Part shown: in pieces, positions 35,428 through 52,782 of the stretch
Position numbering within the stretch: the first letter of the stretch is position 1
Layout of the letters: every line of letters begins with the position of its first letter
From: Escherichia coli
Lineage (GTDB): Bacteria; Pseudomonadota; Gammaproteobacteria; Enterobacterales; Enterobacteriaceae
NCBI RefSeq assembly: GCF_001677475.2
Contig: NZ_CP015229.1
Direction: 5' to 3' (one strand)
Length of the DNA stretch: 64,000 bases
Translations under genes and position numbers: made by a program
Notes under the pieces: generated by a model
Databases searched by the model: none
What the model saw: the letters and a program-made list of their open reading frames with translations, nothing else
Told to the model about the DNA's origin: nothing

Positions 35428-36663
35428 ATGGCGCTGTCTGATGCGTGGTTGCGTTCAGTCGTTGGAAAGGAACGTGATAAGGTTTTGGTTAAATCCGATC
35501 GTGATGGTCTGTCTGTCAGAGTATCACCGAAAGGTCGCGTAGTGTTCCAATATCGTTATCAATGGGCAGGGAAAGGTGAGCGCCTTGATATCGGAACTTA
35601 CCCGGCAACTGGATTAAAAGAGGCCAGAGAAGAAGTTATCCGTCTCCGTGGTGAACTCGAGTCAAACCGCAATCCACGATTAGTCAAGCAGGCTGAAAAA
35701 CGAAAAGCTACTGAAGCCATGACGGTAGAGTCTGTGATCCGTGCCTGGTATGAAGCATATTGTGTAAAAAATAAAAAAGGTTCTGAACAGATACTCCGCT
35801 CGTTTGAGCTGCACCTGTTCTCTAAAATCGGGAATATCCCTCACGATGCAGCTACATTGCATGATTGGTTAGAAGTCCTGGAGCCTCTTAGCACCAAGAC
35901 TCCAGCAATAGTAGACCGATTGCTAATTAACGCAAAGCAGGCTCATGTCTGGGCGTATAAGAGAAAGCTCATTGAAACTCGCCCACTGTCGGATATCACG
36001 GGTAAAGATATGGATATCCGTAAAGGTCAGAAAAAACGGTTTCTGACACATGATGAAATTAACATCCTTTATGCTGCGATCGATGGTTCTCGAATGGTTC
36101 CTAAATACCGAGCCTTCATTAAACTATTGCTGCATTTTGGTTGCCGTAGTTCAGAGCTAATTACTGCTAGGGTGGATGATTTTGATTTCATAAATAAGGT
36201 ATGGACTGTACCACCAGAACGACATAAGACTGGGGACATAACAGGCGAACCGCTAAAGCGGCCCATTATTGAACCGGTTGAAGAGCTTATAAAATACGTT
36301 ATCTCTATGAACAACGGTTCCGATATGCTTTTTACTAAGGAAGGAAGCAGGGAGCCAGTTGGTCGGACATCATTGCAGTCGCTGCCTTACAATTTAATGC
36401 AGTTCGCATGGCGACGTTTGGGGTATCAATTTCCTCATTGGTCTCTTCATGATTTGAGACGAACAGCACGAACAAACTTTTCTGATCTTACTGCTCCTCA
36501 TATTGCTGAAATAATGCTTGGTCATAAACTGCCAGGTGTATGGCAAGTTTATGATAAGAGCGATTATCTAGAAGAACAGCGTAAAGCTTACTGGGCATGG
36601 TGGGAGAGGGTTGAATCGATCGTTACTTGTACTGACTTAATCTCCAACGGACAGTTTGCGTAG
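35428..36663 (+). CDS. int: Phage tyrosine integrase
   Basis: ORF track 411 aa; C-terminal catalytic region with HDLRRTARTN and LGH..VYD motifs; RBS AAGGTGAG. Confidence 0.85.
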   Translation: MALSDAWLRSVVGKERDKVLVKSDRDGLSVRVSPKGRVVFQYRYQWAGKGERLDIGTYPATGLKEAREEVIRLRGELESNRNPRLVKQAEKRKATEAMTVESVIRAWYEAYCVKNKKGSEQILRSFELHLFSKIGNIPHDAATLHDWLEVLEPLSTKTPAIVDRLLINAKQAHVWAYKRKLIETRPLSDITGKDMDIRKGQKKRFLTHDEINILYAAIDGSRMVPKYRAFIKLLLHFGCRSSELITARVDDFDFINKVWTVPPERHKTGDITGEPLKRPIIEPVEELIKYVISMNNGSDMLFTKEGSREPVGRTSLQSLPYNLMQFAWRRLGYQFPHWSLHDLRRTARTNFSDLTAPHIAEIMLGHKLPGVWQVYDKSDYLEEQRKAYWAWWERVESIVTCTDLISNGQFA

Positions 36664-36821: not shown

Positions 36822-37955
36822 ATGAATTATGAAAAATATCATAGCACAAACAGAAGCAAGGGTTTGCGAACCTTCTGCTACTTAATTTATTATGTGCAGG
36901 TGATTTTTAATGTGATGAAGTGTTTTATGACTCGCGGAAACTTTGATTTTATAAACTCTAACGTGGTTTTCTCAGAAGCCGATAAGTCATTGTGGATTGA
37001 TCTCATTAACACCGATTGTATTTGGTATGATATGATAATTAATCCTCCTGATGATATAAGAACAAATAAGATAATAAAGAACTATCTCAGAATTATGGAA
37101 AAATATACGAGGGAAAGCTGTGAAAAGAGATTTATTTATTTCTTAGGTTCAAGAAAAAAAGTGAGGTTTTCAACCAAGAAACAGCCTAGGTATAACCCAT
37201 TCACAAAAAATATAGTATTCACTCTGTTGATTGGCAAAGAAGAGCGAAAGCTTCGGATAAAATATTCCTTTTGCACGTTTACGCAGAATGGGGTAGTGAA
37301 GGTAACTCCAAATGTTAGAGTAACTGAGAAGTTTCTCTACATTGAATATGAAAATGGCAATTTATGTGTGATGTCAGTTCATGATTTCGTAAACGGACAT
37401 TATATTGATTTAGGAATTCATACAGAAGTGCATTACGTAGGATATACACGTCATCCGCATCGGCGCCCTGTTGATTTTATTCACCGTGGCTTATCAAAGA
37501 TGCTGTATAGCGTTTCAAATGACGATAATGATTTTTTTGTTTGTTTTAGTATATTTAATCCAAGGATTATATCTCTGAATAATAAATGTAATGTGGTCTT
37601 TAATATTTCAAATTCTCTACTGGATGAAATTGATGTTGATAATGAGGGGAGAATTATTGAAAACTGCTTAATACGTTACTTTGATCCTAAGCTTCAAGAT
37701 GATGACAAGGAAAGTAAAAGGTCAGATTTAAATAAAATGTTTATGGACCTGGTGGAAAATAAAAAAATTAAAAAAATATACGTTAATTTTCAATATGAAA
37801 GGAATAATGAGTATTTCTGCTTTTACTCTAAAGTTGTTCCGCCGAAATTTCATCATTTCTTTGTGTTGGATTTTTCTGATGGCAAGATAAATATTGATAG
37901 AGACCAGGATATGATGACTCAGATGGCATTGTGCATGGGGTATTATAATTATTAA
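36822..37955 (+). CDS. Hypothetical protein, AT-rich orphan gene adjacent to integrase (candidate moron)
   Basis: ORF track 377 aa; ATG start; GC far below prophage average; no recognisable domain. Confidence 0.45.
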   Translation: MNYEKYHSTNRSKGLRTFCYLIYYVQVIFNVMKCFMTRGNFDFINSNVVFSEADKSLWIDLINTDCIWYDMIINPPDDIRTNKIIKNYLRIMEKYTRESCEKRFIYFLGSRKKVRFSTKKQPRYNPFTKNIVFTLLIGKEERKLRIKYSFCTFTQNGVVKVTPNVRVTEKFLYIEYENGNLCVMSVHDFVNGHYIDLGIHTEVHYVGYTRHPHRRPVDFIHRGLSKMLYSVSNDDNDFFVCFSIFNPRIISLNNKCNVVFNISNSLLDEIDVDNEGRIIENCLIRYFDPKLQDDDKESKRSDLNKMFMDLVENKKIKKIYVNFQYERNNEYFCFYSKVVPPKFHHFFVLDFSDGKINIDRDQDMMTQMALCMGYYNY

Positions 37956-38164: not shown

Positions 38165-38359
38165 TTACTCAATAACTCCAGCAAATCTGTATATTTTGCG
38201 TGATGCCCATTTATTTGGGCAGGATTTAATATCAGGATCTGGAAAATCTGGCCTGTATTTCTGGCCTGTCCTCCTGTTTACGCTGTTCCAGCGAAGCACC
38301 GTCGATATTGAAACGCCACAGAATTCGGCGACTTGTTTTGTTGTCATTAAGTTGCTCAT
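38165..38359 (-). CDS. xis: Excisionase / AlpA-family DNA-binding protein
   Basis: ORF track 64 aa; TTKQVAEFCGVSISTVLRW HTH typical of phage Xis/AlpA. Confidence 0.7.
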   Translation of the reverse strand: MSNLMTTKQVAEFCGVSISTVLRWNSVNRRTGQKYRPDFPDPDIKSCPNKWASRKIYRFAGVIE

Positions 38360-38393: not shown

Positions 38394-38930
38394 TCATGCG
38401 CATGTGCGTAACTCCGATAACTCGTTAAAGCGTTCCATAAACATCCCGTAGGCATGGCCTGGCGACAGTGGAATAACTTTGAACATCTCTGTGGCAGAGA
38501 TGCCTTCCAGTACTGGCCAGAAAGAGCCATCATCAAGCCCGAGATCGCGGCGTTCGGTTGCCAGCATGATGAGATCGGCATATTTCACGGGTGTACTCAT
38601 AACCGGGGGTAACCCGTATTTCTCACGGATTACTGTGTCTATTTTTTCTTCCATCCGTTTATAGTCAGGAAGAAAGCGTTTCAGTGGTGCGGGGATGTCC
38701 TGGCAATACGCTTCTGTTGCATCATGCATTAACGCTTCAAAAGCAAATTCCTGCGGTACCAGCTGGCTGCAAAGCACCGCATGTTGGGCGACGCTGTAGA
38801 AGTGTGAAAGATGACCGGCAAAGCGACAGATATTTGAAAGGGAAACCGCGATATCGTTAATATCGATGTCGTCTTTATTTATCCTGTCATAATAAAAATG
38901 CTTCCCGGAAAAAGTTTTAATAAATGACAT
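38394..38930 (-). CDS. HD-domain phosphohydrolase (YfdR-like)
   Basis: ORF track 38394..38957; ATG at 38930 with GGAG RBS gives 178 aa; H..HD metal-binding motifs (AQHAVLC, LMHDATE). Confidence 0.6.
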   Translation of the reverse strand: MSFIKTFSGKHFYYDRINKDDIDINDIAVSLSNICRFAGHLSHFYSVAQHAVLCSQLVPQEFAFEALMHDATEAYCQDIPAPLKRFLPDYKRMEEKIDTVIREKYGLPPVMSTPVKYADLIMLATERRDLGLDDGSFWPVLEGISATEMFKVIPLSPGHAYGMFMERFNELSELRTCA

Positions 38931-39057
38931 TTTGTTCTCCACGTATATGCGTTGCACCGTGCTGAATTCTGGTAAAAGGAAGCCCTCACCATCTGGCGAT
39001 TATTGGGTAAATTATGTTGACATAAATGCCCCCGCAGGGGCATTTGCAGTAATGAAA

Positions 39058-39882
39058 TCAGGCGGTGAAAGTACCAATAAAGGTTTCTACTTTGCTGTCT
39101 TTGAATTTCTCAACAAGCAGATCACGAAATTCGTTAGCCATTTCTTCCTGCACCGCTTCCAGCTGAATAATGCGCAGAACCAGTACAGGACGATCGCCAG
39201 TGATAATGCTGAGGCGTAATTTAAACGGACGTTCTTTCAGACCTTCAAACGGAACGCATTTAAATTCAAATGCCACTGGCATAATGTCTTTGGTCTTCGC
39301 TTCGACAGACTCCATCAGGGAGCGTTTGCCGCTGAAGTCATTATCTTCAAAATCAGCGGTCTGGTTCGCTTCAATTGTGATTTTACGGATCGCCGCAGCC
39401 GCTTTGGTTGCCTGAATGGCGTCACCATTAGCATCAAAGCCCACAAGGTAGTCGGCCCAGTCTTCAATCCATTCTGCCAGTGACTTCTGGGAGTTACGCT
39501 CGCCGTTAACAGACAACAGGGCAGAGAACGGTGCTGTCTTTTTCAGTTTGAGAGTGGCGGTGTTATCTGCGTGACCTGGTTCATCAATAGTACCCAGGTT
39601 AAGCACACTGACTGCTCGCATATTATCGGCATCGATAAAGCAGCGGGTGCCTTCATCTGCAAGATCTTTAGAATAACGGGTAAAGTCATCGATGCTGGCA
39701 GTGGAAAGCGCACCACGGAAACGGAAGCGATTTAAATTAAATTTTTCCAGATCATGAATGCGGAAATTCTCAGGCAATGCCACAGCATCGGCACCAATCT
39801 TACTGATAATTTCATTAACACCCTGAGCAGAAATAAGGGCATGGATTTGATTAATTGCGGTTGCGTCTAAGTTCTGAGACAT
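39058..39882 (-). CDS. Hypothetical prophage protein (YfdQ-like, 274 aa)
   Basis: ORF track; good RBS GTGAGGA; length and position match yfdQ as recalled. Confidence 0.5.
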
Positions 39883-39947
39883 AATAAGTCCTCACTATAT
39901 AAAGATATTCAGTGATGAGATAAATAATCGGTTAATTAAGAACGATA

Positions 39948-40310
39948 TTAATGACCTGCTGCGCGGAGTTTTCCGTCAGGTTCACCGGCAAGAGTCAGTA
40001 ATTGTCCCTGGTCTTCCTGCAGAATAGTCAGGCGACCACCGCGATTGACATACATCGGCGTTTCGGTGGTGTCTTCTTCGGAAATTTTCCCGCGGTTAGT
40101 CGGGCGAACATATGAGAGTTTGTGTTTGATTTTCACACGGTTCTCATCAAATGGTTCGATTTCCAGGTTGAGTGAGACCTTACCTTTGGTTTTCGTGTTC
40201 ATCACACCTGAAGCGACTTCACTGAGAACTGCGCCGATTTTGGTTTCAAATACGCCGCCGTCCAGCTCCCCGATAAATGCCTGCACATCAGTACTGCGTT
40301 CGCTAGCCAT
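39948..40310 (-). CDS. Hypothetical prophage protein (YfdP-like, 120 aa)
   Basis: ORF track 39948..40496; internal ATG with GAGGAGCAGCAA RBS gives MASERSTDVQAFIGELDGGVFETK... Confidence 0.45.
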   Translation of the reverse strand: MASERSTDVQAFIGELDGGVFETKIGAVLSEVASGVMNTKTKGKVSLNLEIEPFDENRVKIKHKLSYVRPTNRGKISEEDTTETPMYVNRGGRLTILQEDQGQLLTLAGEPDGKLRAAGH

Positions 40311-40990
40311 TTTGCTGCTCCTCATCATATCGACCCTGCAAGGTCGGTTGGTTTCTCCACAAAACAGAGAAGAACACCTGCGGTGGCAGCCGCCCGGATG
40401 GATTGGGTTATGAGCCCGTCGTCCGGTGATGCTCTTCTCTGTTTTGTAAAAAGAGCGGTACCAGCCGGAAGCAAGTGTACAAACTGGTACCGCCAAAGCA
40501 GTGGCTGTTGTGGTGACCGGTGCTGATCTCCGGCTTGCGGTTATTTCAGACTCTCACGGGTGTTTAATTGCCCCGCCGAACAGCTCTTTTCCGCAATAGC
40601 TGCAATGTCTTTCGCGCATCAGCCTGCGCATTCACCACAACGCTGAGAGCACTTAGCCAGTTACGGCACCACACTTTGTCGCGGTTCCATAAATGCCCTC
40701 ATCGTTGCACCCTGGTCTCTTCCCAGGTGTCAAACCGAACCGCCACGCTGGTTAGGCGTCTTATCAGCATCATCATTGACTTGCACATTCCGGCTACCTG
40801 GTTTGTTTGCCCGAGCAAGGAGTGGATTGTCCCCTTTAACGTCCCCAGACCGCTAACGACGCATGTGCCATACGCCGTGTTACAACCAAATTTTGTTAGT
40901 ACCTTGTTTGTTGGTCTGGAAAGAAAGATAAAATGAAGTTGCGCATTATGCAAGTGTTTTTGTTGCGAGATATGCAATTTGATGGGTAAT

Positions 40991-41012
40991 GAAAAGCCAC
41001 CTTCGGGTGGCT
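40991..41012 (-). terminator. Putative intrinsic terminator downstream of cI
   Basis: agccacc-ttcg-ggtggct hairpin followed on minus strand by T-run. Confidence 0.5.
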
Positions 41013-41032: not shown

Positions 41033-41725
41033 TTAATTGTGTCGCTTAAGGGTTTGTGACTGGCTGATTAAGACCTTTCCAAAGACCATAAACCGGTGTT
41101 CATTTTCGCTGGTAATTCCCCATTCACGGTAAATCTGGTTATCAGAAATCACCAGTAGTTTGTCAGGTATCATTTGCAGTCGTTTGACATAAATTTTATC
41201 ATCAAAACCAAATACATAGATACCATCTCCATCAAACTGATTGATACTGACATCAACGAAGATGAGATCTCCTGGCTCAATGGTTGGACACATACTGTCC
41301 CCACGAACGTTGATTACTTTAATGTGATTTGCTGGCCGTCCGCCAAACATCGATACAGCATTATCAGTTCTGTATTCAATGGCATGAATCACATCAATGA
41401 CATCACCGCCCTGGATAAGGCCATTTCCCGCACTGGCACTGATATCCAGCATTTCAATACGGAATACATCCTTCACCTGCGCAACATCCTCACTAATACT
41501 GTTTTTACATACAGTATTACTTTTGAAGTCTGAGGTAAAGAGATCAGCAATATCAACACCTAAGCTCCTGGCAATATTACTCAGGGCTTGTTCAGTGAAT
41601 TGTTTCTGCTTACCTGTTTCCAGGCGCGAGATATTTGCCGCATCCACTCCTATTGCTTCAGCGAGATCGGCGATTTTCATGTTCTTCGCTTGGCGAAGTT
41701 GTCTGACTCGATTTCCTATGTTCAT
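41033..41725 (-). CDS. cI: CI-like phage repressor (XRE HTH + S24 LexA-like peptidase domain)
   Basis: ORF track 230 aa; N-terminal HTH VRQLRQAKNMKIADLAEAIGVDAANISRLETGK; C-terminal GDSMCPTIEPGD..KRL. Confidence 0.85.
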   Translation of the reverse strand: MNIGNRVRQLRQAKNMKIADLAEAIGVDAANISRLETGKQKQFTEQALSNIARSLGVDIADLFTSDFKSNTVCKNSISEDVAQVKDVFRIEMLDISASAGNGLIQGGDVIDVIHAIEYRTDNAVSMFGGRPANHIKVINVRGDSMCPTIEPGDLIFVDVSINQFDGDGIYVFGFDDKIYVKRLQMIPDKLLVISDNQIYREWGITSENEHRFMVFGKVLISQSQTLKRHN

Positions 41726-41822
41726 GCGTTTATTACATTTCTTTATTGCGCGTTAAGCAAATCAACTTGCGCAAAATATTTGCGTGAAATAATATGCTCA
41801 TCACGCAATATGTGGAGGTTAT
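41726..41822. promoter_or_regulatory. Immunity-region divergent promoters/operators between cI and cro
   Basis: Repeated TTGCGC/GCGCAA half-sites and inverted repeat ttgcgtga-N13-tcacgcaa. Confidence 0.55.
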
Positions 41823-42083: not shown

Positions 42084-42627
42084 GCATCACTGGAAAGTGG
42101 AAAAACAGCCTGAGTGGTACGTGAAAGCTGTCAGAAAAACTATCGCGGCGTTGCCGGGGGGTTACGCTGAAGCTGCTGAGTGGCTGGATGTAACAGAGAA
42201 CGCTTTATTCAACCGCCTTCGTGCAGATGGCGATCAGATTTTCCCGCTGGGATGGGCAATGATTTTACAGCGCGCTGCTGGCACTCACTACATTGCGGAT
42301 GCTGTCGCACAGTCTGCTGGTGGGGTGTTTGTATCGCTTCCTGAAATTGAGGAAGTAGAGAACGCCGATATAAACCAGCGCCTGCTGGAAGTCATCGAAC
42401 AAATCGGGAGTTACTCAAAGCAGATTCGTTCGGCAATCGAAGATGGGGTAGTGGAGCCACACGAGCAGACAGCAATTAATGATGAGTTGTATCTGTCGAT
42501 TTCGAAGCTCCAGGAGCATGCGGCACTGGTCTACAAAATTTTCTGCGCTCCAGAAAAGAGTGACGCCCGCGAGTGTGCAGCTCCGGGCGTCGTGGCGTTT
42601 TGTGTCTGTGGAGAAACTAACGCATGA
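42076..42627 (+). CDS. Putative CII-like early regulatory protein
   Basis: ORF track 183 aa directly after cro; family assignment is a guess. Confidence 0.35.
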   Translation: MGKHHWKVEKQPEWYVKAVRKTIAALPGGYAEAAEWLDVTENALFNRLRADGDQIFPLGWAMILQRAAGTHYIADAVAQSAGGVFVSLPEIEEVENADINQRLLEVIEQIGSYSKQIRSAIEDGVVEPHEQTAINDELYLSISKLQEHAALVYKIFCAPEKSDARECAAPGVVAFCVCGETNA

Positions 42628-42952
42628 ACAGTTTAACGGCAAATAACCGTTTGTCGCAACAGCTGGTGGTCAGCGTCTCTGAACACCTGTTGTTACGGCA
42701 TGAATGCAGATTACCAAATCACCAGGCTGTAAGTAACCACAGAGAACTTTACCTGACTGTGGGGGGCGAGTTGTGCAGGAACTTAACCGCTGGTTTCGTG
42801 ACGGAAGAGGGCTTTATGTTCATGTTATTCGTTGGGAACCAGAAACACAGCGCGTTATCTATCTTCGCAAAGACTACCCGCATGAGTGCTTTAGTCCTTT
42901 GTGGAAATTCAGGCGTGATTTTGTTGAGTGTGACGGACCACCAACACATTGA
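42624..42952 (+). pseudogene. Putative frameshifted early gene (~109 aa if restored) interrupted at a G6 tract
   Basis: ATG at 42624 overlaps upstream stop (ATGA); at G-run 42761-42766 the protein-like reading moves to another frame (VQELNRWFRDGRGLYVHVIRWEPETQRVIYLRKDYPHE...) ending TGA 42950-42952. Confidence 0.35.
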
Positions 42953-43229
42953 TTCTGCCATTCCGGGACGTTACACTGTTCAGGCACCTTATAAAACGGG
43001 TGCCGGGCGTGGAAACCCGGAATTCACCAAAGCGCACAACCGCGCTCTTGCGGTTTTTTTGTGTCATGAGCAGCATTACGCCCAAATTATGGTGGGGCGT
43101 GCAGGGCCAACTTCGGTTGGGCCGGGTTCTTTGGTGACCGGTATTTCCACCCCTGTACGTCTCACCACCAATAAGGTCGTGGAAAGCCTTGGTGGTGAGT
43201 TATTAAAAATCACCAAAGAGGCTGCCATC

Positions 43230-43775
43230 ATGGCTACGATCCCAACCCTCACTCAACCTGAAATTGCCATCGTTGATGGTCAGGTTGTTACTTCATCCCT
43301 GGCTGTTGCCAACTTCTTCTCCAAACGTCATGACGATGTACTGAAAAAGATCCGCACGCTTGAATGCTCAGCATCATTCACTGCCCGCAATTTTTCGGTG
43401 AGTGATTACACTGATTGCACAGGTCGCAAACTTCATTGCTACCAAATCACACGCGACGGTTTTGCGTTTCTTGCTATGGGTTTCACGGGTAAACGTGCTG
43501 CCCAGTTCAAAGAGGCATATATCAATGCCTTTAACCAGATGGAGAAACAGCTTTCAAAGCCCGCTGTACCGAGCGACGTTGCACATAACGCCAGCGTTCT
43601 CTGTTCCTACATTTCATCAATTCATCAGGTCTGGCTGCAGCAGCTTTATCCTATGTTGGCAAAAGCCGAATCTCCGCTGGCTGTTAGCTTATATGATTAT
43701 ATTAATGATGCTTCGGCGCTGGCCTGCCTCATAAATTTGTCGCTGAACCCTTCAGAGGTAAGGGGGCGCAAATGA
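43230..43775 (+). CDS. rha: Rha-family phage regulatory protein
   Basis: In-frame ATG with AAGAGG RBS inside ORF-track 42624..43775; MATIPTLTQPEIAIVDGQVVTSSLAVANFFSKRHDDVLKKI matches Rha domain. Confidence 0.65.
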   Translation: MATIPTLTQPEIAIVDGQVVTSSLAVANFFSKRHDDVLKKIRTLECSASFTARNFSVSDYTDCTGRKLHCYQITRDGFAFLAMGFTGKRAAQFKEAYINAFNQMEKQLSKPAVPSDVAHNASVLCSYISSIHQVWLQQLYPMLAKAESPLAVSLYDYINDASALACLINLSLNPSEVRGRK

Positions 43776-43996
43776 TCCGGAATATTTTCAAACGTTTTAC
43801 CAATCAGACTTTCCGTTGTCCTCGTCCGGGTCAGTGGTACACCACGCCTGCAGGGCATGTTCTACGTGTTAGCCTGGTTGACCGTGAATGTCAGAAGGTG
43901 GTTTGTGAACCGCTGGGCCGTAATTACCGCGTCAGTATGCCGCTTATAGCCTTTTGCTCCGGAAAAAACATGAAGCATCTCGGAGGTGCAGCATGA
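43772..43996 (+). CDS. Hypothetical small phage protein (74 aa)
   Basis: ORF track; ATGA overlap with rha stop. Confidence 0.4.
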   Translation: MIRNIFKRFTNQTFRCPRPGQWYTTPAGHVLRVSLVDRECQKVVCEPLGRNYRVSMPLIAFCSGKNMKHLGGAA

Positions 43997-44811
43997 GTAT
44001 GGAGCTGATGGTTAAAGCGATGAAAATTCGAGTGGGTAATCCATTGCGAAAACTGGTTCTGATCAAGCTGGCTGATAATGCCAGCGATCAGGGTGAGTGC
44101 TGGCCCAGCTACCAGCATATTGCTGACCAGTGCGAGATTAGCAAACGTTCTGTGATGAATCATATTGCGGCCCTTTGTGATTCCGGGCTGGTAAAAAAAG
44201 TCACCCGGAAAGGTGAAAAAGGTAACTCAAGTAATATCTATCTCCTTCATCTTGATGGTGCAGGAGATTCACTAGGGGGTAGTGCAAATAATTCACTATC
44301 TGGTGCAGCAAATTCACCAGGTAGTGCAGGAGTTGCACCAGGGGGTGGTGCAGGAGATTCACCCAGAACCAGTCACTCTTTTGAACCAGTCAAAGAACCA
44401 GTCAATGAACCAATAGCTGTTGGTGCATCTGCTGATGAGTCTGTGCGAGTTCGTTCAAACCGACCGGAATACTCTCCGGAGTTTGAGCAGGCATGGCTGG
44501 CATACCCCAAACGTGCTGGTGGCAATTCAAAATCTGCAGCCTTCAAAGCCTGGAAAGCCCGTTTGAATGAGGGGGTAAAACCCGAAACCATGCTGGAAGG
44601 TGTGAAACGCTACGCGGGCTGGGTATCTGCGATGGGTAACAGCGGCACACAATTTGTGAAACAGGCTGTCACGTTCTTTGGTCCGGATCGTCATTTCGAA
44701 GAATCCTGGGAAGTTCCTGCGGTATCTGCAGCCAGACGCGAGGACCCGTACTTCAAAGCCAGTTACGACAACGTGGACTACAGCCAGATCCCGGCAGGAT
44801 TCAGGGGGTAA
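43993..44811 (+). CDS. Phage replisome organiser with DnaT-like C-terminal domain
   Basis: ORF track 43954..44811; N-terminal HTH (LIKLADNASDQGECWPSYQHIADQCEISKRSVMNHIAAL); Gly/Ser/Ala linker; C-terminus ...DYSQIPAGFRG close to host DnaT ...[10 protein letters not shown]. Confidence 0.65.
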   Translation: MSMELMVKAMKIRVGNPLRKLVLIKLADNASDQGECWPSYQHIADQCEISKRSVMNHIAALCDSGLVKKVTRKGEKGNSSNIYLLHLDGAGDSLGGSANNSLSGAANSPGSAGVAPGGGAGDSPRTSHSFEPVKEPVNEPIAVGASADESVRVRSNRPEYSPEFEQAWLAYPKRAGGNSKSAAFKAWKARLNEGVKPETMLEGVKRYAGWVSAMGNSGTQFVKQAVTFFGPDRHFEESWEVPAVSAARREDPYFKASYDNVDYSQIPAGFRG

Positions 44812-44813
44812 TC

Positions 44814-45302
44814 ATGAGTCTTTTGAATGAAGTTCAGAAATTCATTGAAGCCCATCCGGGGTGTACTTCCGGAGACATTGCAGATGCTTTTGCAGGTTAC
44901 TCACGGCAGCGCGTTCTGCAGTCAGCAAGCAAGTTACGTCAGAGTGGGCGTGTGGCTCACCGTTGTGAAGGAGATACACGCAGACATTTCCCGCGCCTGA
45001 CTGAGAGAGCGCAGGAGCCGGAACCACAACCAGTTCGTGAAACCAGACCTGTGCGCAATTTCTATGTCGGCACTAACGATCCCCGGGTAATTTTGTGCCT
45101 GACCCGCCAGGCTGAAGAACTGGAGTCCAGGGGCTTATACCGTCGTGCTGCAACCGTGTGGATGGCGGCATTCCGTGAAAGCCACTCCCAGTCAGAACGA
45201 AACAATTTTCTGGCGCGCCGTGAGCGGTGCTTACGGAAAAGCAGCAAGCGCGCTGTATCGGGTGATGAGTGGTATCTGTCAGGGAATTACGTGGGGGCTT
45301 AA
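44814..45302 (+). CDS. PerC-family-like transcriptional regulator
   Basis: ORF track 162 aa; LESRGLYRRAATVWMAAF...RRERC resembles PerC/Pch motif. Confidence 0.5.
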   Translation: MSLLNEVQKFIEAHPGCTSGDIADAFAGYSRQRVLQSASKLRQSGRVAHRCEGDTRRHFPRLTERAQEPEPQPVRETRPVRNFYVGTNDPRVILCLTRQAEELESRGLYRRAATVWMAAFRESHSQSERNNFLARRERCLRKSSKRAVSGDEWYLSGNYVGA

Positions 45303-45955
45303 TGAGTAATAAATATTGCCAGGCGCTGGTGGAACTGCGGAACAAACCAGCCCATGAACTGAAGGAAGTGGGCGATCAGTGGCGCACGCCGGACAACATT
45401 TTCTGGGGAATTAACACCCTGTTTGGCCCGTTTGTTCTGGATCTGTTCACCGACGGTGATAACGCCAAATGTGCCGCGTATTACACGGCGGAAGACAATG
45501 CGCTGGCGCATGACTGGTCAGAACGTCTTGCGGAGCTTAAAGGTGCTGCCTTTGGTAATCCCCCATACAGCCGCGCCAGTCAGCATGAGGGGCAATACAT
45601 CACCGGCATGCGTTACATCATGAAGCATGCCAGTGCCATGCGTGATAAGGGCGGACGCTATGTTTTCCTGATCAAAGCTGCCACCAGCGAAGTGTGGTGG
45701 CCGGAAGATGCAGATCATATTGCTTTTATTCGCGGGCGTATTGGTTTTGAAGTGCCTGCCTGGTTTATCCCGAAAGACGAGAAGCAGGTGCCGACAGGCG
45801 CTTTCTTCGCTGGTGCTATTGCTGTTTTCGATAAGACCTGGAAGGGACCGGCAATCAGCTACATCGGGCGCGATGAACTTGAGGCATGTGGTGAGGCGTT
45901 TCTGGCGCAGGTTCGCCAGCAGGCAGAACGGCTGGTCAGGGAGATAGTGGCATGA
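45302..45955 (+). CDS. Phage DNA N6-adenine methyltransferase (Dam-like)
   Basis: ORF track 45269..45955; start at MSNKYCQALVEL; catalytic NPPY motif (FGNPPYS). Confidence 0.7.
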   Translation: MSNKYCQALVELRNKPAHELKEVGDQWRTPDNIFWGINTLFGPFVLDLFTDGDNAKCAAYYTAEDNALAHDWSERLAELKGAAFGNPPYSRASQHEGQYITGMRYIMKHASAMRDKGGRYVFLIKAATSEVWWPEDADHIAFIRGRIGFEVPAWFIPKDEKQVPTGAFFAGAIAVFDKTWKGPAISYIGRDELEACGEAFLAQVRQQAERLVREIVA

Positions 45956-46341
45956 AGCTGATCCTGCCTTTTCCGCCCAGCGTGAACACGTACTGGCGAC
46001 ACCCCAACAAAGGGGCGTTTGCAGGTAAGAGCCTGATAAGCGCGGCGGGGCGCAAATTCCAGAGCGCGGCGTGTGCAGCAATAGTTGAGCAGTTACGTCG
46101 TCTGCCGAAACCAACGTCGGCACCTGCTTCAGTGGAGATCGTGTTGTTTCCTCCGGATAACCGGATCCGCGATCTGGACAACTATAACAAGGCGCTGTTT
46201 GACGCCCTGACCCACGCGGGTGTGTGGGAAGACGACAGTCAGGTGAAAAGAATGCTGGTGGAGTGGGGACCGGTTATCCCGGAAGGGAAGGTCGAGATCA
46301 CTATCAGTAAGTACGAGAAAACGGCGGGTGCAGCCGCCTGA
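45952..46341 (+). CDS. rusA: RusA-family Holliday junction resolvase
   Basis: ORF track 129 aa; MKLILPFPPSVNTYWRH...RDLDNYNKALFDALTHAGVWEDDSQV. Confidence 0.8.
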   Translation: MKLILPFPPSVNTYWRHPNKGAFAGKSLISAAGRKFQSAACAAIVEQLRRLPKPTSAPASVEIVLFPPDNRIRDLDNYNKALFDALTHAGVWEDDSQVKRMLVEWGPVIPEGKVEITISKYEKTAGAAA

Positions 46342-46360
46342 TCAAGAGGAGAAACGAAGT

Positions 46361-47203
46361 ATGAATAATCTGATGGTCATTGATGGTATTGAAGTTCGTC
46401 GTGATGCTTATGGGCGTTACAGCCTGAACGATCTGCATCGGGCTGCTGTTGCATCTGGTGCAAATGCCAGAACTAAGGAGCCGGGAAAGTTTCTTTCCAG
46501 CCAACAGATTACTGAGCTGGTTCAGGAATTGATCGATACCCAAAATTTGGGTGTCGGTTCATTCAATGAAACTACCCAAAATTTGGGTAGTAAACCAGTA
46601 AGTAAAATAGAAGGGCGGAATGGAGGAACGTATGTCTGCAAGGAACTGGTGTATGCCTATGCAATGTGGATCAGCCCGTCATTCCATCTGAAGGTGATCC
46701 GTACTTTCGATATGGTAACCAGCACACCGGAAAAATTATCCGGGCAGGCTGCTGACAAGATGCAGGCTGGCGTGATCCTGCTGGACTTTATGCGCCGGGA
46801 ATTAAACCTGTCTAACTCATCAGTGCTTGGAGCCTGTCAGAAGCTTCAGGAGGCTGTTGGCTTACCGAATCTGGCACCGCGCTATGCCATTGATGCTCCT
46901 GCTGACGCGCCTGATGGCTCAAGTCGCCCCACGCTGTCGCTGAGTGCACTGCTGAAACAGTATGGTATCCGCCTGACGGCTAATCAGGCATATCACCAGA
47001 TGGTGAAGCTGGGGATCGTTGAACAACGCGAACGATACAGCCGTACCGCGATTAACAACATCAAAAAATTCTGGTCGCTGACGGCGAAAGGCTGCATGTT
47101 CGGCAAGAACATCACCAGTCCTGCAAATCCGCGCGAGACGCAGCCGCATTTCTTCGAATCCCGATTCCCTGAGCTGTTAAAGCTGCTCGATACCGTTCAT
47201 TGA
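46361..47203 (+). CDS. KilA-N domain protein
   Basis: ORF track 46328..47203; start MNNLMVIDGIEVRRD with GAGGAG RBS; N-terminal KilA-N-like region. Confidence 0.55.
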   Translation: MNNLMVIDGIEVRRDAYGRYSLNDLHRAAVASGANARTKEPGKFLSSQQITELVQELIDTQNLGVGSFNETTQNLGSKPVSKIEGRNGGTYVCKELVYAYAMWISPSFHLKVIRTFDMVTSTPEKLSGQAADKMQAGVILLDFMRRELNLSNSSVLGACQKLQEAVGLPNLAPRYAIDAPADAPDGSSRPTLSLSALLKQYGIRLTANQAYHQMVKLGIVEQRERYSRTAINNIKKFWSLTAKGCMFGKNITSPANPRETQPHFFESRFPELLKLLDTVH

Positions 47204-47204
47204 G

Positions 47205-48200
47205 GTGACCGTGAGAGCACTACTGACCCCTGAAATTGCCCCGCGTATGGGGATCGTATTGTTCAGGCCAGGTTCAGAGCTGATGCCCCTGTTTATGCAG
47301 GGGCGTGTCCTGCTGGAGCCTGAGCCGGAACGTTATTCATCTTTCGCCAGTGGTGCCGTTCCGGCGGCATCACAACCGCTGGCGGATGATCCTGCCGTTC
47401 GGGCCGTGTTCCGCAATGAGGCAGTGATCCGTCGTGCTGGTGGCGTGGAATGTCTTGAAAGCTGGTTACTTCGTGAAAAGGGCTGTCAGTGGCCTCATTC
47501 CGACTGGCACAGCGAGAACATGACCACAATGCGACACGCGCCGGGCGCAATCCGTCTGTGTTGGCACTGCGATAACCAGTTGCGTGATCAGTTCACGGAA
47601 CGGCTGGAATCAATGGCAACGGATAACTGTGCCCGCTGGGTGTTATCTGTCGTGCGTCGGGATCTCGGTTTTGATGACAGTCACGTAGTGACAATGCCGG
47701 AACTGTGCTGGTGGCTGGTTCGTAATGACCTGGCGGATGCCTTACCGGAAAGTGCAGCCCGTAAGGCACTGAGATTACCGAAGCCTGTTGTGCCGTCTGT
47801 CACCCGGGAAAGTGACCTTGTGCCTTCGGTTCCTGCCACCAGCATCATCCAGGATAAAGCGAAAAAGGTGCTGGCGCTGAAAGTGGATCCGGAGTCGCCG
47901 GAGTCTTTTATGTTACGCCCAAAACGTCGCCGCTGGGTTAATGAAAAGTACACGCGCTGGGTTAAGACACAGCCGTGTGCATGTTGTGGAAAGCCCGCTG
48001 ATGATCCCCACCACCTGATAGGCCACGGTCAGGGTGGAATGGGTACAAAAGCGCATGACCTTTTTGTGTTGCCTTTGTGCAGAAAGCATCACGACGAGCT
48101 GCATGCGAATACCGTGGCATTTGAAGAGAATTATGGCTCCCAGCTGGAGCTGATATTTCGTTTTATCGATCGTGCGCTGGCAATAGGCGTACTGGCGTAA
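47205..48200 (+). CDS. DUF968-like prophage protein with C-terminal HNH-like zinc finger
   Basis: ORF track 331 aa; CACCGKPADDPHHLIGHGQGG...LCRKHHDELH; resembles YdfU-type proteins found next to Q. Confidence 0.55.
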   Translation: MTVRALLTPEIAPRMGIVLFRPGSELMPLFMQGRVLLEPEPERYSSFASGAVPAASQPLADDPAVRAVFRNEAVIRRAGGVECLESWLLREKGCQWPHSDWHSENMTTMRHAPGAIRLCWHCDNQLRDQFTERLESMATDNCARWVLSVVRRDLGFDDSHVVTMPELCWWLVRNDLADALPESAARKALRLPKPVVPSVTRESDLVPSVPATSIIQDKAKKVLALKVDPESPESFMLRPKRRRWVNEKYTRWVKTQPCACCGKPADDPHHLIGHGQGGMGTKAHDLFVLPLCRKHHDELHANTVAFEENYGSQLELIFRFIDRALAIGVLA

Positions 48201-48213
48201 GTGGAGAACGAGC

Positions 48214-48966
48214 ATGAACCTTGAAGCTTTACCAAAATATTACTCCCCAAAATCGCCAAAATTGAGTGATGACGCACCGGCGACAGGCTCGGGTGGTTTA
48301 ACAATAACAGATGTGATGGCTGCGCAGGGGATGGTGCAGTCGAAAGCTCCGCTTGGTTTTGCCTTATTCCTGGCAAAAGTTGGTGTTCAGGATCCTCAGT
48401 TTGCGATTGAAGGTCTGCTCAATTACGCGATGGCAATGGATAATCCGACATTGAACAAATTGAGTGAAGAAATCCGGTTACAGATCATCCCTTACCTTGT
48501 GAATTTTGCCTTTGCTGATTATTCCAGGTCTGCGGCAAGTAAGGCTCGCTGTGAGTATTGTGCTGGTACTGGATTTCATAATGTATTGCGCGAAGTGGTG
48601 AAACACTCCAGAAGCGGGGAATCTGTTATCAAGGAAGAGTGGGTGAAGGAACTATGTCAGCATTGCCATGGTAAGGGAGAAGTCAGCACAGCGTGCAGAG
48701 GGTGTAAGGGGAAAGGTATTGTCCTGGATGAAAAAAGAACCCGGCTTCATAGCACGCCTGTTTATAAGGTTTGTGGGCGTTGCAATGGAAACCGGTTTAG
48801 TCGTTTACCAACGACACTGGCGCGGTGTCATGTCCAGAAGCTGGTACCAGACCTGACGGATTATCAGTGGTACAAAGGATATGCAGATGTCATTGATAAA
48901 CTGGTTACAAAGTGCTGGCAGGAAGAAGCATATGCTGAGGTGCAATTAAGAAAAGTGACGAGATAA
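48214..48966 (+). CDS. Q: Late-gene antitermination protein Q (phage 82/Qin QuuQ type)
   Basis: ORF track 250 aa; zinc-finger repeats CEYCAGTG, CQHCHGKG, CRGCKGKG; immediately upstream of lysis module. Confidence 0.75.
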   Translation: MNLEALPKYYSPKSPKLSDDAPATGSGGLTITDVMAAQGMVQSKAPLGFALFLAKVGVQDPQFAIEGLLNYAMAMDNPTLNKLSEEIRLQIIPYLVNFAFADYSRSAASKARCEYCAGTGFHNVLREVVKHSRSGESVIKEEWVKELCQHCHGKGEVSTACRGCKGKGIVLDEKRTRLHSTPVYKVCGRCNGNRFSRLPTTLARCHVQKLVPDLTDYQWYKGYADVIDKLVTKCWQEEAYAEVQLRKVTR

Positions 48967-49111
48967 ATGATTTTCACCGAACGATGGCGACATAACGATT
49001 GTATTTTCTAAGGAAACGTGCAAAGAGTTTTCCAATGATGAGCCTTATATGCATACCGGTGGAAAATATCAATAAGCCGCGCAGAGTGGTTTTTTTGTGG
49101 ACATAAACTTT

Positions 49112-49155
49112 GTGCAGAACGGTAACCATTATGGTTGCCGTGAATGCAGTTTTTT
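49112..49155 (+). terminator. Putative tR'-like intrinsic terminator downstream of Q
   Basis: tgca-gaa-cggtaacca tta tggttgccg-tgaa-tgca hairpin followed by TTTTTTT. Confidence 0.5.
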
Positions 49156-49727
49156 TACATTGCTGGCTTTTTTAGATTTGTGTTAGTTATTGATATTAAC
49201 AAGAAGGGGAAAAGACATGCTAAAACGGCAGGATATGAAGGAAACGGTTATGCGTGAATGTTCCAGTGTGATTAACCATATCATCTGGAGAAGCCATCCT
49301 GATGCAGGGAAGAGGTAACAGTAACGCGCATCAATCAGGCTGCAAATAAATGGCTTACGCCGGAAATCTGGCTATCGATGTATTACCGGTTTGTTACCCA
49401 TGAAGAAAATTAAGGTGATAACGAAACTGATTTTATAGGTGTCTTGTCAGAGTGTTGCGATGAAACTTGTGTTGGCAGTGCAGGGAAAACAGTAGGATGA
49501 AAATTATAAATTGCTTTAAATTAGCTTGATTTTCCTCATGTTATGAGATATTTGTCTTATATTGCTGGTTAATTATGAAAATTTTTGTAAATCTACAGCA
49601 ATAAAATCCATATTAATTAAAGCACTAGATGCGTTTCTGATTTGTGCATGAAACATACATATCATAATGATTAATTGCATCTATAATTACAGATACAGCA
49701 TTGTGCTGTTAAAAAACTGGAGTCCCC

Positions 49728-49835
49728 ATGAATACATTATATGTAAGTGATTCAAATGAAAAATCTCATGACAGGAATAAAAACAATGAGGATAGTAAGG
49801 GTAAGGATAATAAAAAAGACAACCGGAAAGAGTAA
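49728..49835 (+). CDS. Candidate small hydrophilic protein (35 aa)
   Basis: Own reading: ATG with GGAG RBS, MNTLYVSDSNEKSHDRNKNNEDSKGKDNKKDNRKE; below ORF-track length cut-off. Confidence 0.3.
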   Translation: MNTLYVSDSNEKSHDRNKNNEDSKGKDNKKDNRKE

Positions 49836-49870
49836 ATAATCTTTCCTGCATAAAAATACTAGGGTGGAAT

Positions 49871-49990
49871 ATGTCAGAACATCCAGATTTTGATGACCGT
49901 AAGCCTGATGATGAGCCCGTTGAGCGTCCTGATGAGGGGCAACCATTGAACCCTTTTTCACCGGATGATAAAAGAGATCCTATTATTTAG
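49871..49990 (+). CDS. Candidate small acidic protein (39 aa)
   Basis: Own reading: ATG with GGGTGG RBS, MSEHPDFDDRKPDDEPVERPDEGQPLNPFSPDDKRDPII; followed by terminator. Confidence 0.3.
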   Translation: MSEHPDFDDRKPDDEPVERPDEGQPLNPFSPDDKRDPII

Positions 49991-50044
49991 ATATAGCAGA
50001 ATATAGCCGTTTAAAGTAGGTTGTGTTTTGTTGCTATCCTTAAA

Positions 50045-50069
50045 CCACCTCCACAGGAGGTGGTTTTTT
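50045..50069 (+). terminator. Intrinsic terminator
   Basis: ccacctcc-aca-ggaggtgg then TTTTTT. Confidence 0.7.
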
Positions 50070-50126
50070 ACTAATGGAACATTAATTGGCAGATGTGATT
50101 GTGTACAACTTATGGGAGGCTTAAGA

Positions 50127-50315
50127 TTATTTTCTGCCAATAATAAAACCAAGCGTTAACCCTATGCTTAGAGCAACCACCACGCTAGTCAGTGGATAAT
50201 TTCTAAATTTATCTTTAACGTTTTCTTTGCCTCCCTGCAAAGCATCGTCAGCACATGATGCATATTTTTTGACAGTATTAACTATTTCGTTTTCAGATTG
50301 ATTTGAAGTCATGTT
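50127..50315 (-). CDS. Small membrane-anchored protein with ElaB/DUF883-like C-terminal tail
   Basis: ORF track 50127..50411; internal ATG gives MTSNQSENEIVNTVKKYASCADDALQGGKENVKDKFRNYPLTSVVVALSIGLTLGFIIGRK. Confidence 0.4.
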   Translation of the reverse strand, partial: NMTSNQSENEIVNTVKKYASCADDALQGGKENVKDKFRNYPLTSVVVALSIGLTLGFIIGRK

Positions 50316-50765
50316 TGAAGTCCTGATGTTAAGTGGCTTTTTAATTATAGCAGATATGCTTTCAATGATAGGGCGGAGAGTTGTTATTGAGGTGATACTA
50401 TGACCACTCAATCAACATTACATAAAATGACGTTTACTCCTGTTTGGCACAGTAGCAGAATTTTGCTTCTGCTACTGAAGTCGCTTTAGCACTAGAATAT
50501 GCAGATGGATAAAGCAGTTCAGCGTATGTACTGCGTCATGCATATCGGTCTTGCAGATATGACGAGAAGGGGAGACAAGGTGTGTGTAATGTAGAAGTCT
50601 TTAAAGTGCTGTCTGGGATAACTCTATACTGAAGTGCAATTGATAAAAGTAACACGATAAAGGTTTTTCAATGAAGATGGTAACGTGATGCTTGCATTTT
50701 TCAAAAAATATGGATAAAATTTTTTCAACGATGGGCTTTGTATACCCGACGTTAAGAAAAAGTAG

Positions 50766-50788
50766 AAAACCCGCTGATGAGCGGGTTT
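50766..50788 (-). terminator. Hairpin terminator downstream of cspF-like gene
   Basis: aaacccgct-gatg-agcgggttt with T-rich flanks both sides. Confidence 0.5.
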
Positions 50789-52093: not shown

Positions 52094-52116
52094 ACCCGCT
52101 CAGGCGGGTTTTTTAT
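52094..52116 (+). terminator. Intrinsic terminator after cspB
   Basis: acccgc-tcag-gcgggt followed by TTTTTT. Confidence 0.7.
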
Positions 52117-52173
52117 TATCTGCTTTAAATATGTTATTAAAATATAAAAAATACTTGTTACGAATAAAATCAA

Positions 52174-52778: not shown

Positions 52779-52782
52779 TCCA

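Follow-up and report, generated by a model that had tools for sequence, protein, structure and literature searches.

Three genes at the start of the early-left operon of a lambda-like prophage are, with near certainty, yfdP, yfdQ and yfdR; the operon, probably under repressor control, lies in the window, the 64,000-nucleotide stretch of Escherichia coli DNA (contig NZ_CP015229.1) that was analysed here. The best explanation for this cassette is that it represents the head of the leftward early (pL-type) operon of an SfV/mEp460/LLS/PhiR63_1-type prophage and acts on the host replication supply, a reading to which we assign a probability of roughly 0.55, with the mechanism alone standing at about even odds.

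As a finding, the identification is correct but ordinary: the trio is already known, as it carries RefSeq names, has been the subject of K-12 studies and has been described as a common lambdoid early-left cluster. What is new here is the strict adjacency of YfdP and YfdQ across distant phages, together with the isolation of the YfdQ fold, whose single PDB relative belongs to its own family. The cassette ranks among the commonest carried by E. coli prophages, being found (at a query coverage of at least 80%) in 2455 of 5426 complete genomes of the species, or about 45%, and two of its proteins, YfdP and YfdQ, are still without a known activity. It is 100% identical in phage PhiR63_1, to which the prophage is 99.8% identical over 22 kb; this near-identity to an isolated phage would make the prophage a cleaner test system than the decayed CPS-53 for control of replication or of the nucleotide pool. 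The leader RNA of the operon may be a more rewarding lead than the trio.

Identity of the trio and layout of the operon

The features of the operon, in the direction of transcription, are as follows:

41033..41725, minus strand: cI-type repressor, 230 aa, with HTH_3/HTH_26 and Peptidase_S24 domains
40995-41012, minus strand: terminator-like hairpin at cI, a terminator-like site by scan
40963-40977 and 40939-40953, minus strand: putative OL operators, two exact TTGCN7GCAA palindromes read from the sequence
40953-40925, minus strand: candidate pL, TTGCAT-17-TATCTT, not called by the consensus scan
40311..40924, minus strand: untranslated leader of about 615 nt, from the putative pL to yfdP
40510..40638, minus strand: structured RNA-like element inside the leader, unannotated
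39948..40310, minus strand: yfdP, 120 aa, first cassette gene
39058..39882, minus strand: yfdQ, 274 aa, DUF2303 / YfdQ family
39024..39045, minus strand: GC-rich hairpin AAAUGCCCC-UGC-GGGGGCAUUU just past the yfdQ stop, read from the sequence
38394..38930, minus strand: yfdR, 178 aa, HD-domain 5'-deoxynucleotidase family
38165..38359, minus strand: excisionase, 64 aa, last leftward gene (phrog_1553, E=1e-34, full length)

A preliminary description had placed three minus-strand genes of 120, 274 and 178 aa between cI and xis, and had matched their lengths and order to those of yfdP-yfdQ-yfdR of prophage CPS-53. Both points hold, and the comparison with K-12 YfdP/Q/R that it had proposed gives 119/120, 273/274 and 169/178 identical residues on global alignment (99.2%, 99.6% and 94.9% protein identity, respectively), with RefSeq using the same names. 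At the DNA level, the cassette shares 96.8% identity with K-12, the matching interval being exactly 38394-40329 (1936 bp), so that a chance resemblance to K-12 is excluded. The borders of the cassette are sharp and mosaic, with the homology covering exactly this interval and ending 19 bp upstream of yfdP.

Two of the three ORFs can be read from more distant start codons. The ORF at 38394-38957 (minus strand) encodes 187 aa if read from a GTG and 178 aa if the ATG at 38930 is used; that at 39948-40496 (minus strand) encodes 182 aa with a TTG start and 120 aa with the ATG at 40310. The ORF at 39058-39882 (minus strand) encodes 274 aa. The short ATG starts agree with homologue alignments (M1 being invariant in one of them) and with the way RefSeq and K-12 are annotated; Shine-Dalgarno sequences, 7-9 nt upstream, lend further support.

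The genes between cI and xis/int (cI, yfdP/Q/R and xis) all run leftward, which is the arrangement of a lambdoid early-left operon, and cro and a cII-like gene are also present. The TTGCN7GCAA sequence recurs at 41746-41760, between cI and cro, and three of the eight exact matches in the 64 kb flank cI; no put-like repeat was found on the pR side. The pL sequence is a weak promoter candidate, and the operon would probably be expressed as a single, repressor-controlled transcript, with a Shine-Dalgarno sequence before each cassette gene and short gaps between genes. In K-12, yfdPQ have been treated as one operon (PMC9181523). The yfdQ-yfdR gap is 127 nt and holds the hairpin at 39024-39045, which was not called by the terminator scan and may function as an attenuator. 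In the case of the excisionase, the gene starts 34 nt past the yfdR stop on the same strand, and its N-terminus gives weak HTH_17/MerR matches; it is unannotated in RefSeq NZ_CP073589, and the PhiR63_1 annotation uses the opposite strand there.

The untranslated leader and its structured RNA

The leader (40311-40924) contains no convincing ORF, and RefSeq annotates nothing in it. It folds with a z-score of -4.0 (20 shuffles). The structured element within it is composed of a closing stem, a 5' hairpin with the loop GGCUGA, a hypervariable core, and a 3' hairpin with the loop AGAUCAGCA. In an alignment of the element, 98.6% of cells are paired, compensatory change is found in 11 of the 16 pairs, and 94 cells are changed on both sides, versus 16.7±3.3 in shuffles. 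The scaffold thus shows strong covariation, and it is widespread in phages; the element is not obligately linked to yfdPQR.

A search of the region against Rfam returned nothing at E≤1, ARAGORN finds no tRNA in the leader, and no SrsR boxes were found there. A 25-aa ORF at 40554-40631 (MRRLMRERHCSYCGK...), which has the look of an HNH remnant, was rejected, as the hairpin covariation alters its codons and some versions of the element are without the AUG.

The three proteins and their distribution

YfdQ matches PF10065 over its full length (E=6e-93), residues 7-272 aligning with positions 2-269 of the 269-position model. Its AF2 model is confident (pLDDT 92.4, pTM 0.85) and has no fold relative in the PDB save a new, unpublished family entry, 9O7M, which is tied to YfdQ by sequence, both fold libraries having been searched without 9O7M. 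This entry ('YfdQ Protein') has 36 chains, is 38% identical to the window YfdQ at the same length, and matches the family profile at E=2.9e-87. Its source is a CP2-like phage of Xanthomonas that shares 99% identity with phage MET23-P3. A PDB search with the YfdP homologue of that phage and two neighbouring genes found no partner in 9O7M, and a literature search for 9O7M or any YfdQ structure found no paper. All 137 YfdQ relatives were compared with Pfam, with no consistent second family. When a 10-sequence YfdQ alignment was used as the query for related loci, only near-identical E. coli prophages were returned.

YfdP matches phrog_204 (E=1e-49), and the clusters of its homologues bear PF27127 'YfdP' as a precomputed label. 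The start codon is preceded by GAGGAG 8 nt upstream and is kept in 23 homologues. Residues 70-110 are the most conserved stretch of the protein, yet the stretch of lowest model confidence, a pattern that would fit a partner-binding segment. The model as a whole (pLDDT 67) gave nothing below E=0.03 in a Foldseek search of the PDB, with TM below 0.36.

For YfdR, the HD phosphohydrolase signature noted in the preliminary description is borne out by a match to the Pfam YfbR-like family PF12917, only just above the gathering cut-off (26.2 bits against 25.9), and by retention of H50, H69-D70 and D119. Among 20 homologues, there is no variation at H50, H69 or D119, conservation at D70 is at least 90%, and none of the nine substitutions between the window and K-12 proteins falls at an HD residue. 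The protein matches phrog_318 (E=1.7e-108), a family annotated by PHROG as dNMP phosphatase, and RefSeq annotates it as a 5'-deoxynucleotidase. YfbR (PDB 2PAQ), the E. coli HD-domain 5'-deoxynucleotidase, shares PF12917 and the aligned H-D, E and D residues, with hhalign placing YfdR H69-D70-E73-D78 on YfbR H68-D69-E72-D77 in what is a local match only (36 columns, with a probability of 29%). Among solved structures, Atu1052 (PDB 2GZ4; E=2e-13) is the closer relative, and the HD motifs align to it as well. Against the YfbR equivalog NCBIfam NF003009, YfdR scores 21.4 bits, below the cut-off of 122; YfdR is, on these scores, a member of a YfdR-type paralogous family and not YfbR itself.

K-12 YfdR, a weak 5'-deoxynucleotidase, binds DnaA domain I via Phe46 and is a moderate competitor of DiaA and DnaB (PMC4776307). 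Carried over from this 94.9%-identical protein, the window YfdR is predicted to be a dNMP phosphohydrolase that would also bind DnaA domain I. The view that the role of the trio is not established therefore stands for the biochemistry of YfdP and YfdQ (PMC12315714) and falls for YfdR, given its 5'-deoxynucleotidase annotation, its DnaA domain I binding, and the multicopy effect of yfdQ+yfdR+yfdS/yfdT (PMC4776307).

In 12 of the 12 distant loci examined (YfdQ 37-43% identical), those of Xanthomonas and Pseudomonas phages included, YfdP is the gene immediately upstream of YfdQ. YfdR is found downstream in three of the six distinct loci with enough flank (L012, L100 and L101, two of which are Pseudomonas phages), and YfdQ occurs without YfdR in L005, L007-L009 and L014. 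All of 80 near-identical viral contigs have P; the counts for R, S and T are 77, 55 and 33. By tblastn, relatives of YfdR are found in 333 phage records, virulent and jumbo phages without YfdP/Q among them, and given such relatives the DnaA binding of YfdR may be incidental. PADLOC defence models gave no match for YfdP, YfdQ, YfdR or a neighbouring 377-aa ORF.

Proposed function and comparison with known systems

In a lysogen, the operon would be kept silent by cI occupying the two TTGCN7GCAA operators. On induction, the pL transcript would cross the 615-nt leader into yfdP, yfdQ, yfdR and xis, and the three Yfd proteins would then act early on the host DNA-replication supply, with YfdR hydrolysing dNMPs and/or keeping DnaA from DnaB and DiaA. 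YfdP-YfdQ would act as one unit, YfdQ being a large homo-oligomer, that assists or targets the activity of YfdR. In K-12, multicopy yfdQ+yfdR+(yfdS or yfdT) blocks initiation at oriC, with yfdP dispensable, an effect that the authors concede is possibly an artefact (PMC4776307). The same study also holds evidence against this mechanism, as deletion of yfdQRST left initiation and hydroxyurea resistance unchanged, and yfdQ+yfdR alone gave no hda-185 suppression; pull-downs revealed no strong YfdQ-YfdR or YfdQ-DnaA binding (PMC4776307). By tblastn, no homologue of YfdS, YfdT or TorI is found anywhere in the window, and the yfdQRST inhibitor set (yfdQ+yfdR+yfdS/yfdT; Noguchi & Katayama 2016) is thus incomplete. 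With yfdS and yfdT absent from the prophage, the window trio may fail to give the published phenotype.

It is possible, as a tentative alternative, that YfdR is purely an early dNMP phosphatase like T5 Dmp, in which case the DnaA binding would be a side effect of overexpression and YfdP-YfdQ a separate, co-travelling module. This would agree with the intact HD site of YfdR, the dNMP phosphatase / 5'-deoxynucleotidase labels of PHROG and RefSeq, the many virulent or jumbo phages with YfdR relatives and no YfdP/Q, and the occurrence of YfdQ without YfdR at L005, L007-L009 and L014. However, lambdoid phages are not known to break down the DNA of their host, which would leave no flood of dNMPs to clear in a lambdoid infection, and the P-Q-R linkage is seen again in Pseudomonas phages. 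T5 Dmp itself is an early dNMPase that boosts virulence and is toxic via pool imbalance (bioRxiv 10.64898/2026.04.02.716235), whereas a passage of PMC4776307, citing Zimmerman 2008, puts the nucleotide affinity of YfdR low, much below that of YfbR, and K-12 genetics required yfdQ along with yfdR (PMC4776307).

That YfdP/Q(/R) are a hidden recombination or replication-restart module, replacing the missing Exo/Beta/Gam-type Rec module, is improbable. The trio sits where a Rec module would, no SSAP, exonuclease or Gam homologue is found between cI and xis, and a K-12 yfdQ deletion is mildly sensitive to both MMS and H2O2 (PMC4776307). In Xanthomonas phage MET23-P3, too, genes for ERF, exonuclease and SSB follow just downstream of the pair. 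However, Pfam, PHROG, PDB and fold searches found no match to a lambdoid Rec module (Exo/SSAP/Gam/SSB), and MET23-P3 already encodes an ERF recombinase itself. Likewise, ArgO145 has both the cluster and a full Rec module, from which its authors concluded that a recombination role is unlikely (PMC12315714). Also improbable is a benefit to the lysogen, whereby prophage expression would aid host stress tolerance or control other prophages. Deletion of CPS-53 reduces H2O2 and acid tolerance, yfdQ affects production of phage SW1 (bioRxiv 10.1101/413146), and K-12 has its strongest SrsR target in the yfdO/yfdP spacer, with yfdPQ mRNA detected during growth (PMC9181523). Yet this K-12 control region is absent in the window, where homology begins 19 bp upstream of yfdP and the genes lie behind cI operators, and the pair is also present in apparently virulent Xanthomonas CP2-like phages.

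An early action on the host replication supply remains our preferred reading. A broader proposal, which we regard as doubtful, would join these observations: YfdP-YfdQ would be an ancient, obligate phage early pair (enterobacterial lambdoid, Pseudomonas and Xanthomonas) whose fold has no solved relative outside its own family, with YfdQ as a very large homo-oligomer (36 chains in 9O7M) and YfdP contributing a conserved partner-binding tail. With YfdR, the pair would constitute an unrecognised host-takeover device that stops DnaA-dependent initiation or re-routes deoxynucleotides in phages without a Rec module and N. Separately, the leader RNA would be one member of an undescribed family of structured phage RNAs, in which a tRNA-like scaffold stays constant and the core is hypervariable.

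Among known systems, CPS-53 (KplE1) of K-12, with yfdP-yfdQ-yfdR(-yfdS-yfdT), has the same genes, order and spacing as the window. In K-12, yfdR is followed by yfdS, yfdT, ypdJ and torI, whereas in the window it is followed directly by an unrelated excisionase, and the sites of integration also differ (argW in K-12, next to yjjG in the window). Both cI and pL have been lost from CPS-53, where an SrsR-bound spacer is found in their place (PMC9181523). The same cluster heads the early-left operon of SfV (orf29-31), ST64B (gp35-37), LLS (gp37-39), mEp460 (gp33-35) and PhiR63_1, a type with no canonical Rec module and no N homologue; downstream of yfdR, these lambdoid phages vary, with yfdS-like, DUF551, Ea22-like and exonuclease genes.

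At the level of function, T5 Dmp is alike in its working, as an early product that dephosphorylates dNMPs, but T5 couples Dmp to degradation of host DNA, which is not known of lambdoid phages. No sequence relation between Dmp and YfdR was found, with no T5-like phage in the organism tally or among the 30 listed of the 333 tblastn matches. Lambda P protein, B. subtilis SirA and Dps are DnaA binders that block initiation; they share no homology with YfdR, which has an enzyme fold and whose effect needs partner genes. If the K-12 result holds, YfdR would nonetheless resemble them in its action, since the Phe46/Phe49 patch of DnaA domain I is needed by SirA and YfdR alike.

Gene content and spread of the yfdP-yfdQ-yfdR cassette

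The preliminary description placed three minus-strand genes of 120, 274 and 178 aa between cI and xis, and likened their lengths and order to those of yfdP-yfdQ-yfdR from the K-12 prophage CPS-53. The three ORFs, the repressor and the excisionase were all found, and the span proposed for the trio, 38394-40310, has the yfdR stop and the yfdP start as its exact ends.

The cassette and its immediate neighbours
38165-38359, minus: excisionase, 64 aa (phrog_1553, E=1e-34), 34 nt past the yfdR stop
38394-38957, minus: yfdR ORF, 187 aa from a GTG, 178 aa with ATG at 38930
39058-39882, minus: yfdQ ORF, 274 aa
39948-40496, minus: yfdP ORF, 182 aa from a TTG, 120 aa with ATG at 40310
41033-41725, minus: cI-type repressor (HTH and Peptidase_S24), upstream of the trio

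The shorter starts are preferred because that of yfdP is the common start point in 23 YfdP homologues, M1 of the shorter YfdR is invariant among 20 homologues, a Shine-Dalgarno sequence lies 7-9 nt 5' of every trio ATG, and the short forms are those given by RefSeq as well as by the revised K-12 annotation. Directly past the yfdQ stop, inside the 127-nt yfdQ-yfdR gap, lies a GC-rich hairpin, AAAUGCCCC-UGC-GGGGGCAUUU (39024-39045, minus), which may be an attenuator, consistent with the description of the K-12 yfdPQ operon (PMC9181523). The excisionase is unannotated in the identical RefSeq genome, and the near-identical phage PhiR63_1 has at this site an annotated 121-aa ORF on the opposite strand instead.

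A megablast search of 5426 complete E. coli genomes recovered 100% identical DNA in RefSeq, with features named yfdP, yfdQ and yfdR (5'-deoxynucleotidase), while global alignment to CPS-53 of K-12 MG1655 gave 119/120 identities for YfdP, 273/274 for YfdQ and 169/178 for YfdR. Both results bear out the likeness, and the gene identity is near certain. DNA similarity to K-12 (96.8%) covers exactly 38394-40329, from 19 bp before yfdP through the final base of yfdR, and stops abruptly on either side; the trio is thus a sharply bounded mosaic cassette. At a coverage of at least 80%, the cassette is present in 2455 of the 5426 genomes, in up to seven places per genome. The finding of the trio is therefore correct and its interpretation supported, but the trio is already known and very common; exactly this cluster was described in a 2025 survey of lambdoid phages (PMC12315714).

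The three proteins

In the case of YfdR, the proposed HD phosphohydrolase signature is upheld by a match to phrog_318 ('deoxyribonucleoside 5' monophosphate phosphatase', E=2e-108), by a match to the solved HD protein Atu1052 (2GZ4, E=2e-13), and by a score barely over the threshold for the Pfam YfbR-like family (26.2 bits against 25.9). The active-site alignment agrees: H50, H69, D78 and D119 are invariant among 20 homologues, conservation is 90% or higher at D70 and E73, and hhalign places H69-D70-E73-D78 on H68-D69-E72-D77 of YfbR, reportedly the metal and catalytic residues of that enzyme. YfdR is ruled out as a YfbR equivalog by an NCBIfam score of 21 bits against a cut-off of 122. There are YfdR relatives in 333 phage records, of which many come from virulent or jumbo phages without YfdP or YfdQ.

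Profile searches of ORFs at 12 distant YfdQ loci, drawn from chromosomal prophages, metagenomic contigs and isolated phages (among them Xanthomonas phage MET23-P3 and two Pseudomonas phages) and representing 8 distinct YfdQ relatives (37-43% identical), found a YfdP homologue immediately 5' of YfdQ on the same strand in every case. A YfdR homologue follows downstream in only three of the six distinct loci with sufficient flank, both Pseudomonas phages included. YfdP-YfdQ would thus represent one unit, with YfdR a frequent but optional companion. In MET23-P3 (4493-5747 of locus L014), hhalign identifies a gene labelled 'translation elongation factor' as a YfdP homologue (probability 99.3%). The gene that follows shares 99% identity with PDB entry 9O7M, and ERF, exonuclease and SSB genes come after it.

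The high-confidence YfdQ model (pLDDT 92.4, pTM 0.85) had no meaningful match in two fold libraries, neither of which contained 9O7M (Foldseek TM below 0.25), and no consistent second Pfam family was found among 137 YfdQ relatives. A PDB sequence search recovered 9O7M, named 'YfdQ Protein', a single entry of 36 chains with a protein length of 274 residues. Its E-value against the YfdQ family profile is 2.9e-87 and its identity to YfdQ of the window is 38%; a literature search found no paper on it. The chain number is suggestive of a large homo-oligomer, although A and B may be other molecules, the chain given as example being C. For YfdP, the model is moderate (pLDDT 67) and shows one helix lying on a sheet of three to four strands; no fold match was found for it. 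Residues 70-110 have the highest conservation, with many invariant positions, yet the lowest model confidence, a combination that fits a segment folding on a partner.

Host prophage, control region and candidate leader RNA

The surrounding prophage, whose left end lies at about 35196 beside yjjG, is 99.8% identical to PhiR63_1 across 22 kb; beyond about 57.3 kb the two diverge. Judged by this match, the present copy of the cassette probably belongs to a functional lambdoid phage, not to a decayed remnant such as CPS-53.

Further features of the prophage
35428-36663, plus: int, convergent with xis, with a low-GC ORF between
36822-37955, plus: 377-aa ORF (342 aa in RefSeq) between int and xis, GC about 32%
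40638-40510, minus: modular RNA-like element in three parts, unannotated, inside the putative pL leader
40939-40953 and 40963-40977: exact TTGCN7GCAA palindromes in the sequence just left of the cI terminator
41746-41760: third TTGCN7GCAA palindrome in the sequence, between cI and cro

The 377-aa ORF, present in only 61 of the 5426 genomes, has phrog_7779 (unknown function) as its sole match and zero matches in Pfam, PADLOC or the PDB. It may be a moron or a gene for defence. Divergent from cI are cro and a cII-like gene, and cI itself is flanked by three of the eight exact TTGCN7GCAA matches in the 64 kb. TTGCAT-17-TATCTT, which overlaps the inner palindrome, is a weak promoter candidate; the promoter scan made no call there, and pL is thus putative. 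According to the 2025 survey, the cluster-bearing phage type has no N homologue (PMC12315714).

The leader of about 615 nt between the putative pL and yfdP holds no credible ORF and folds more stably than its shuffles (z=-4.0). A long imperfect hairpin (40359-40447, minus), with a 39-nt loop and 25-nt arms that are 84% complementary, is found 50-135 nt 5' of yfdP, just beyond the K-12-shared region. Further upstream, about 40635-40891 (minus) is 78-82% identical to unannotated tRNA-flanking DNA of unrelated phages, upstream of tRNA-Arg(UCU) in phiV10, and downstream of a CAU-anticodon tRNA, before ban, in a P1-like phage. ARAGORN found no tRNA in the leader, and the segment resembles a fragment of a tRNA cluster, of phage origin, from which the tRNAs have been lost.

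The adjoining modular element has a constant 5' block (GUGGUG-AAU-GCGCA-GGCUGA-UGCGC), a core wholly different in sequence and length among phages (total length of the element about 76-226 nt), and a constant 3' block (GCCGG-AGAUCAGCA-CCGGC/U-CACCAC); the conserved hairpin loops GGCUGA and AGAUCAGCA are mutually complementary. When relatives were collected with the 3' hairpin as the only query, their outer stems showed at least 15 different sequences, the complement matched each time, and the 5' hairpin stem also covaried. In a scaffold alignment of 53 sequences, made with pairing-aware rules and so leaning towards the structure, 98.6% of cells are paired, 11 of 16 pairs show compensatory change, and both sides have changed in 94 cells, where shuffles give 16.7±3.3 and slid controls no more than 20. 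The sole Rfam match is a weak, local one of the 3' hairpin to rydB, and a literature search found no paper containing the element sequences. More than 120 viral contigs carry the element; the exact version of the window is in 817 of the 5426 genomes, annotated in none, and also in P1-like plasmids. One copy, that of HK620, is located between qut and the late terminator. In phiV10, tRNA-Arg is at the equivalent position. The element may represent a new phage ncRNA family with a tRNA-like scaffold, but is found at only 13-17 of 80 yfdQ loci and is thus not part of the cassette.

Possible function and relation to the K-12 genes

The preliminary statement that the role of the trio is not established is true of YfdP and YfdQ, which the 2025 survey lists without known function (PMC12315714), but not of YfdR. 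Noguchi and Katayama found that K-12 yfdQRST in multicopy suppresses hda-185; yfdQ, yfdR and either yfdS or yfdT were needed, yfdP was dispensable and yfdQR alone insufficient (PMC4776307). Purified YfdR binds DnaA in a Phe46-dependent manner and competes moderately with DiaA and DnaB, and YfdQRST-rich extracts inhibit oriC replication in vitro; the nucleotide affinity of YfdR is described as far below that of YfbR (PMC4776307). The K-12 deletion has no phenotype, and the authors concede a possible overexpression artefact (PMC4776307). One preprint links yfdQ to the production of another phage (bioRxiv 10.1101/413146).

Loss of cI repression would initiate a leftward transcript expressing YfdP, YfdQ, YfdR and Xis; YfdR would then target the supply for host replication by dephosphorylating dNMPs, by binding DnaA domain I, or both, assisted or directed by the YfdP-YfdQ unit. 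We give this combined mechanism about even odds. The published function rests on overexpression (PMC4776307) and requires partner genes, which this copy lacks. A pure nucleotide-pool role, like that of Dmp, the early dNMP phosphatase of phage T5, is a less likely explanation; no sequence relation to T5 was seen in the organism tally or among the matches listed from the 333 phage records. A hidden recombination role is disfavoured, as ArgO145 has the cluster alongside a full Rec module (PMC12315714), the Xanthomonas phage encodes an ERF recombinase beside its YfdP-YfdQ pair, and fold similarity is absent. A benefit to the lysogen is likewise disfavoured here, since the K-12 regulatory region is absent.

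SrsR of K-12 binds the yfdO/yfdP spacer more strongly than any other target (PMC9181523); here, that control region is missing upstream of the trio, and no SrsR boxes were found in the leader. Unlike in CPS-53, an unrelated excisionase comes directly after yfdR, and tblastn found no YfdS, YfdT or TorI homologue anywhere in the 64-kb window. Judged by K-12 genetics, the trio alone may yield no replication phenotype. Of 80 viral contigs that carry a near-identical yfdQ, all 80 have YfdP, 77 YfdR, 55 YfdS and 33 YfdT, and 8 have the present layout, P-Q-R followed by this excisionase. Chi sites (GCTGGTGG) number 8 plus and 2 minus in the 28.8-kb prophage part, where they fall within 42316-54074, with seven of the eight plus-strand sites in 42.3-47.7 kb, and 3 plus and 2 minus in the 35-kb host part. 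The pattern is in keeping with the lambdoid type reported for phage LLS, 'no Rec module, many Chi' (PMC12315714). The right arm (44716-45568, plus) carries homologues of CPS-53 YfdN (96%), YfdM (100%) and part of YfdO; CPS-53 is thus a collapsed relative of this phage type.
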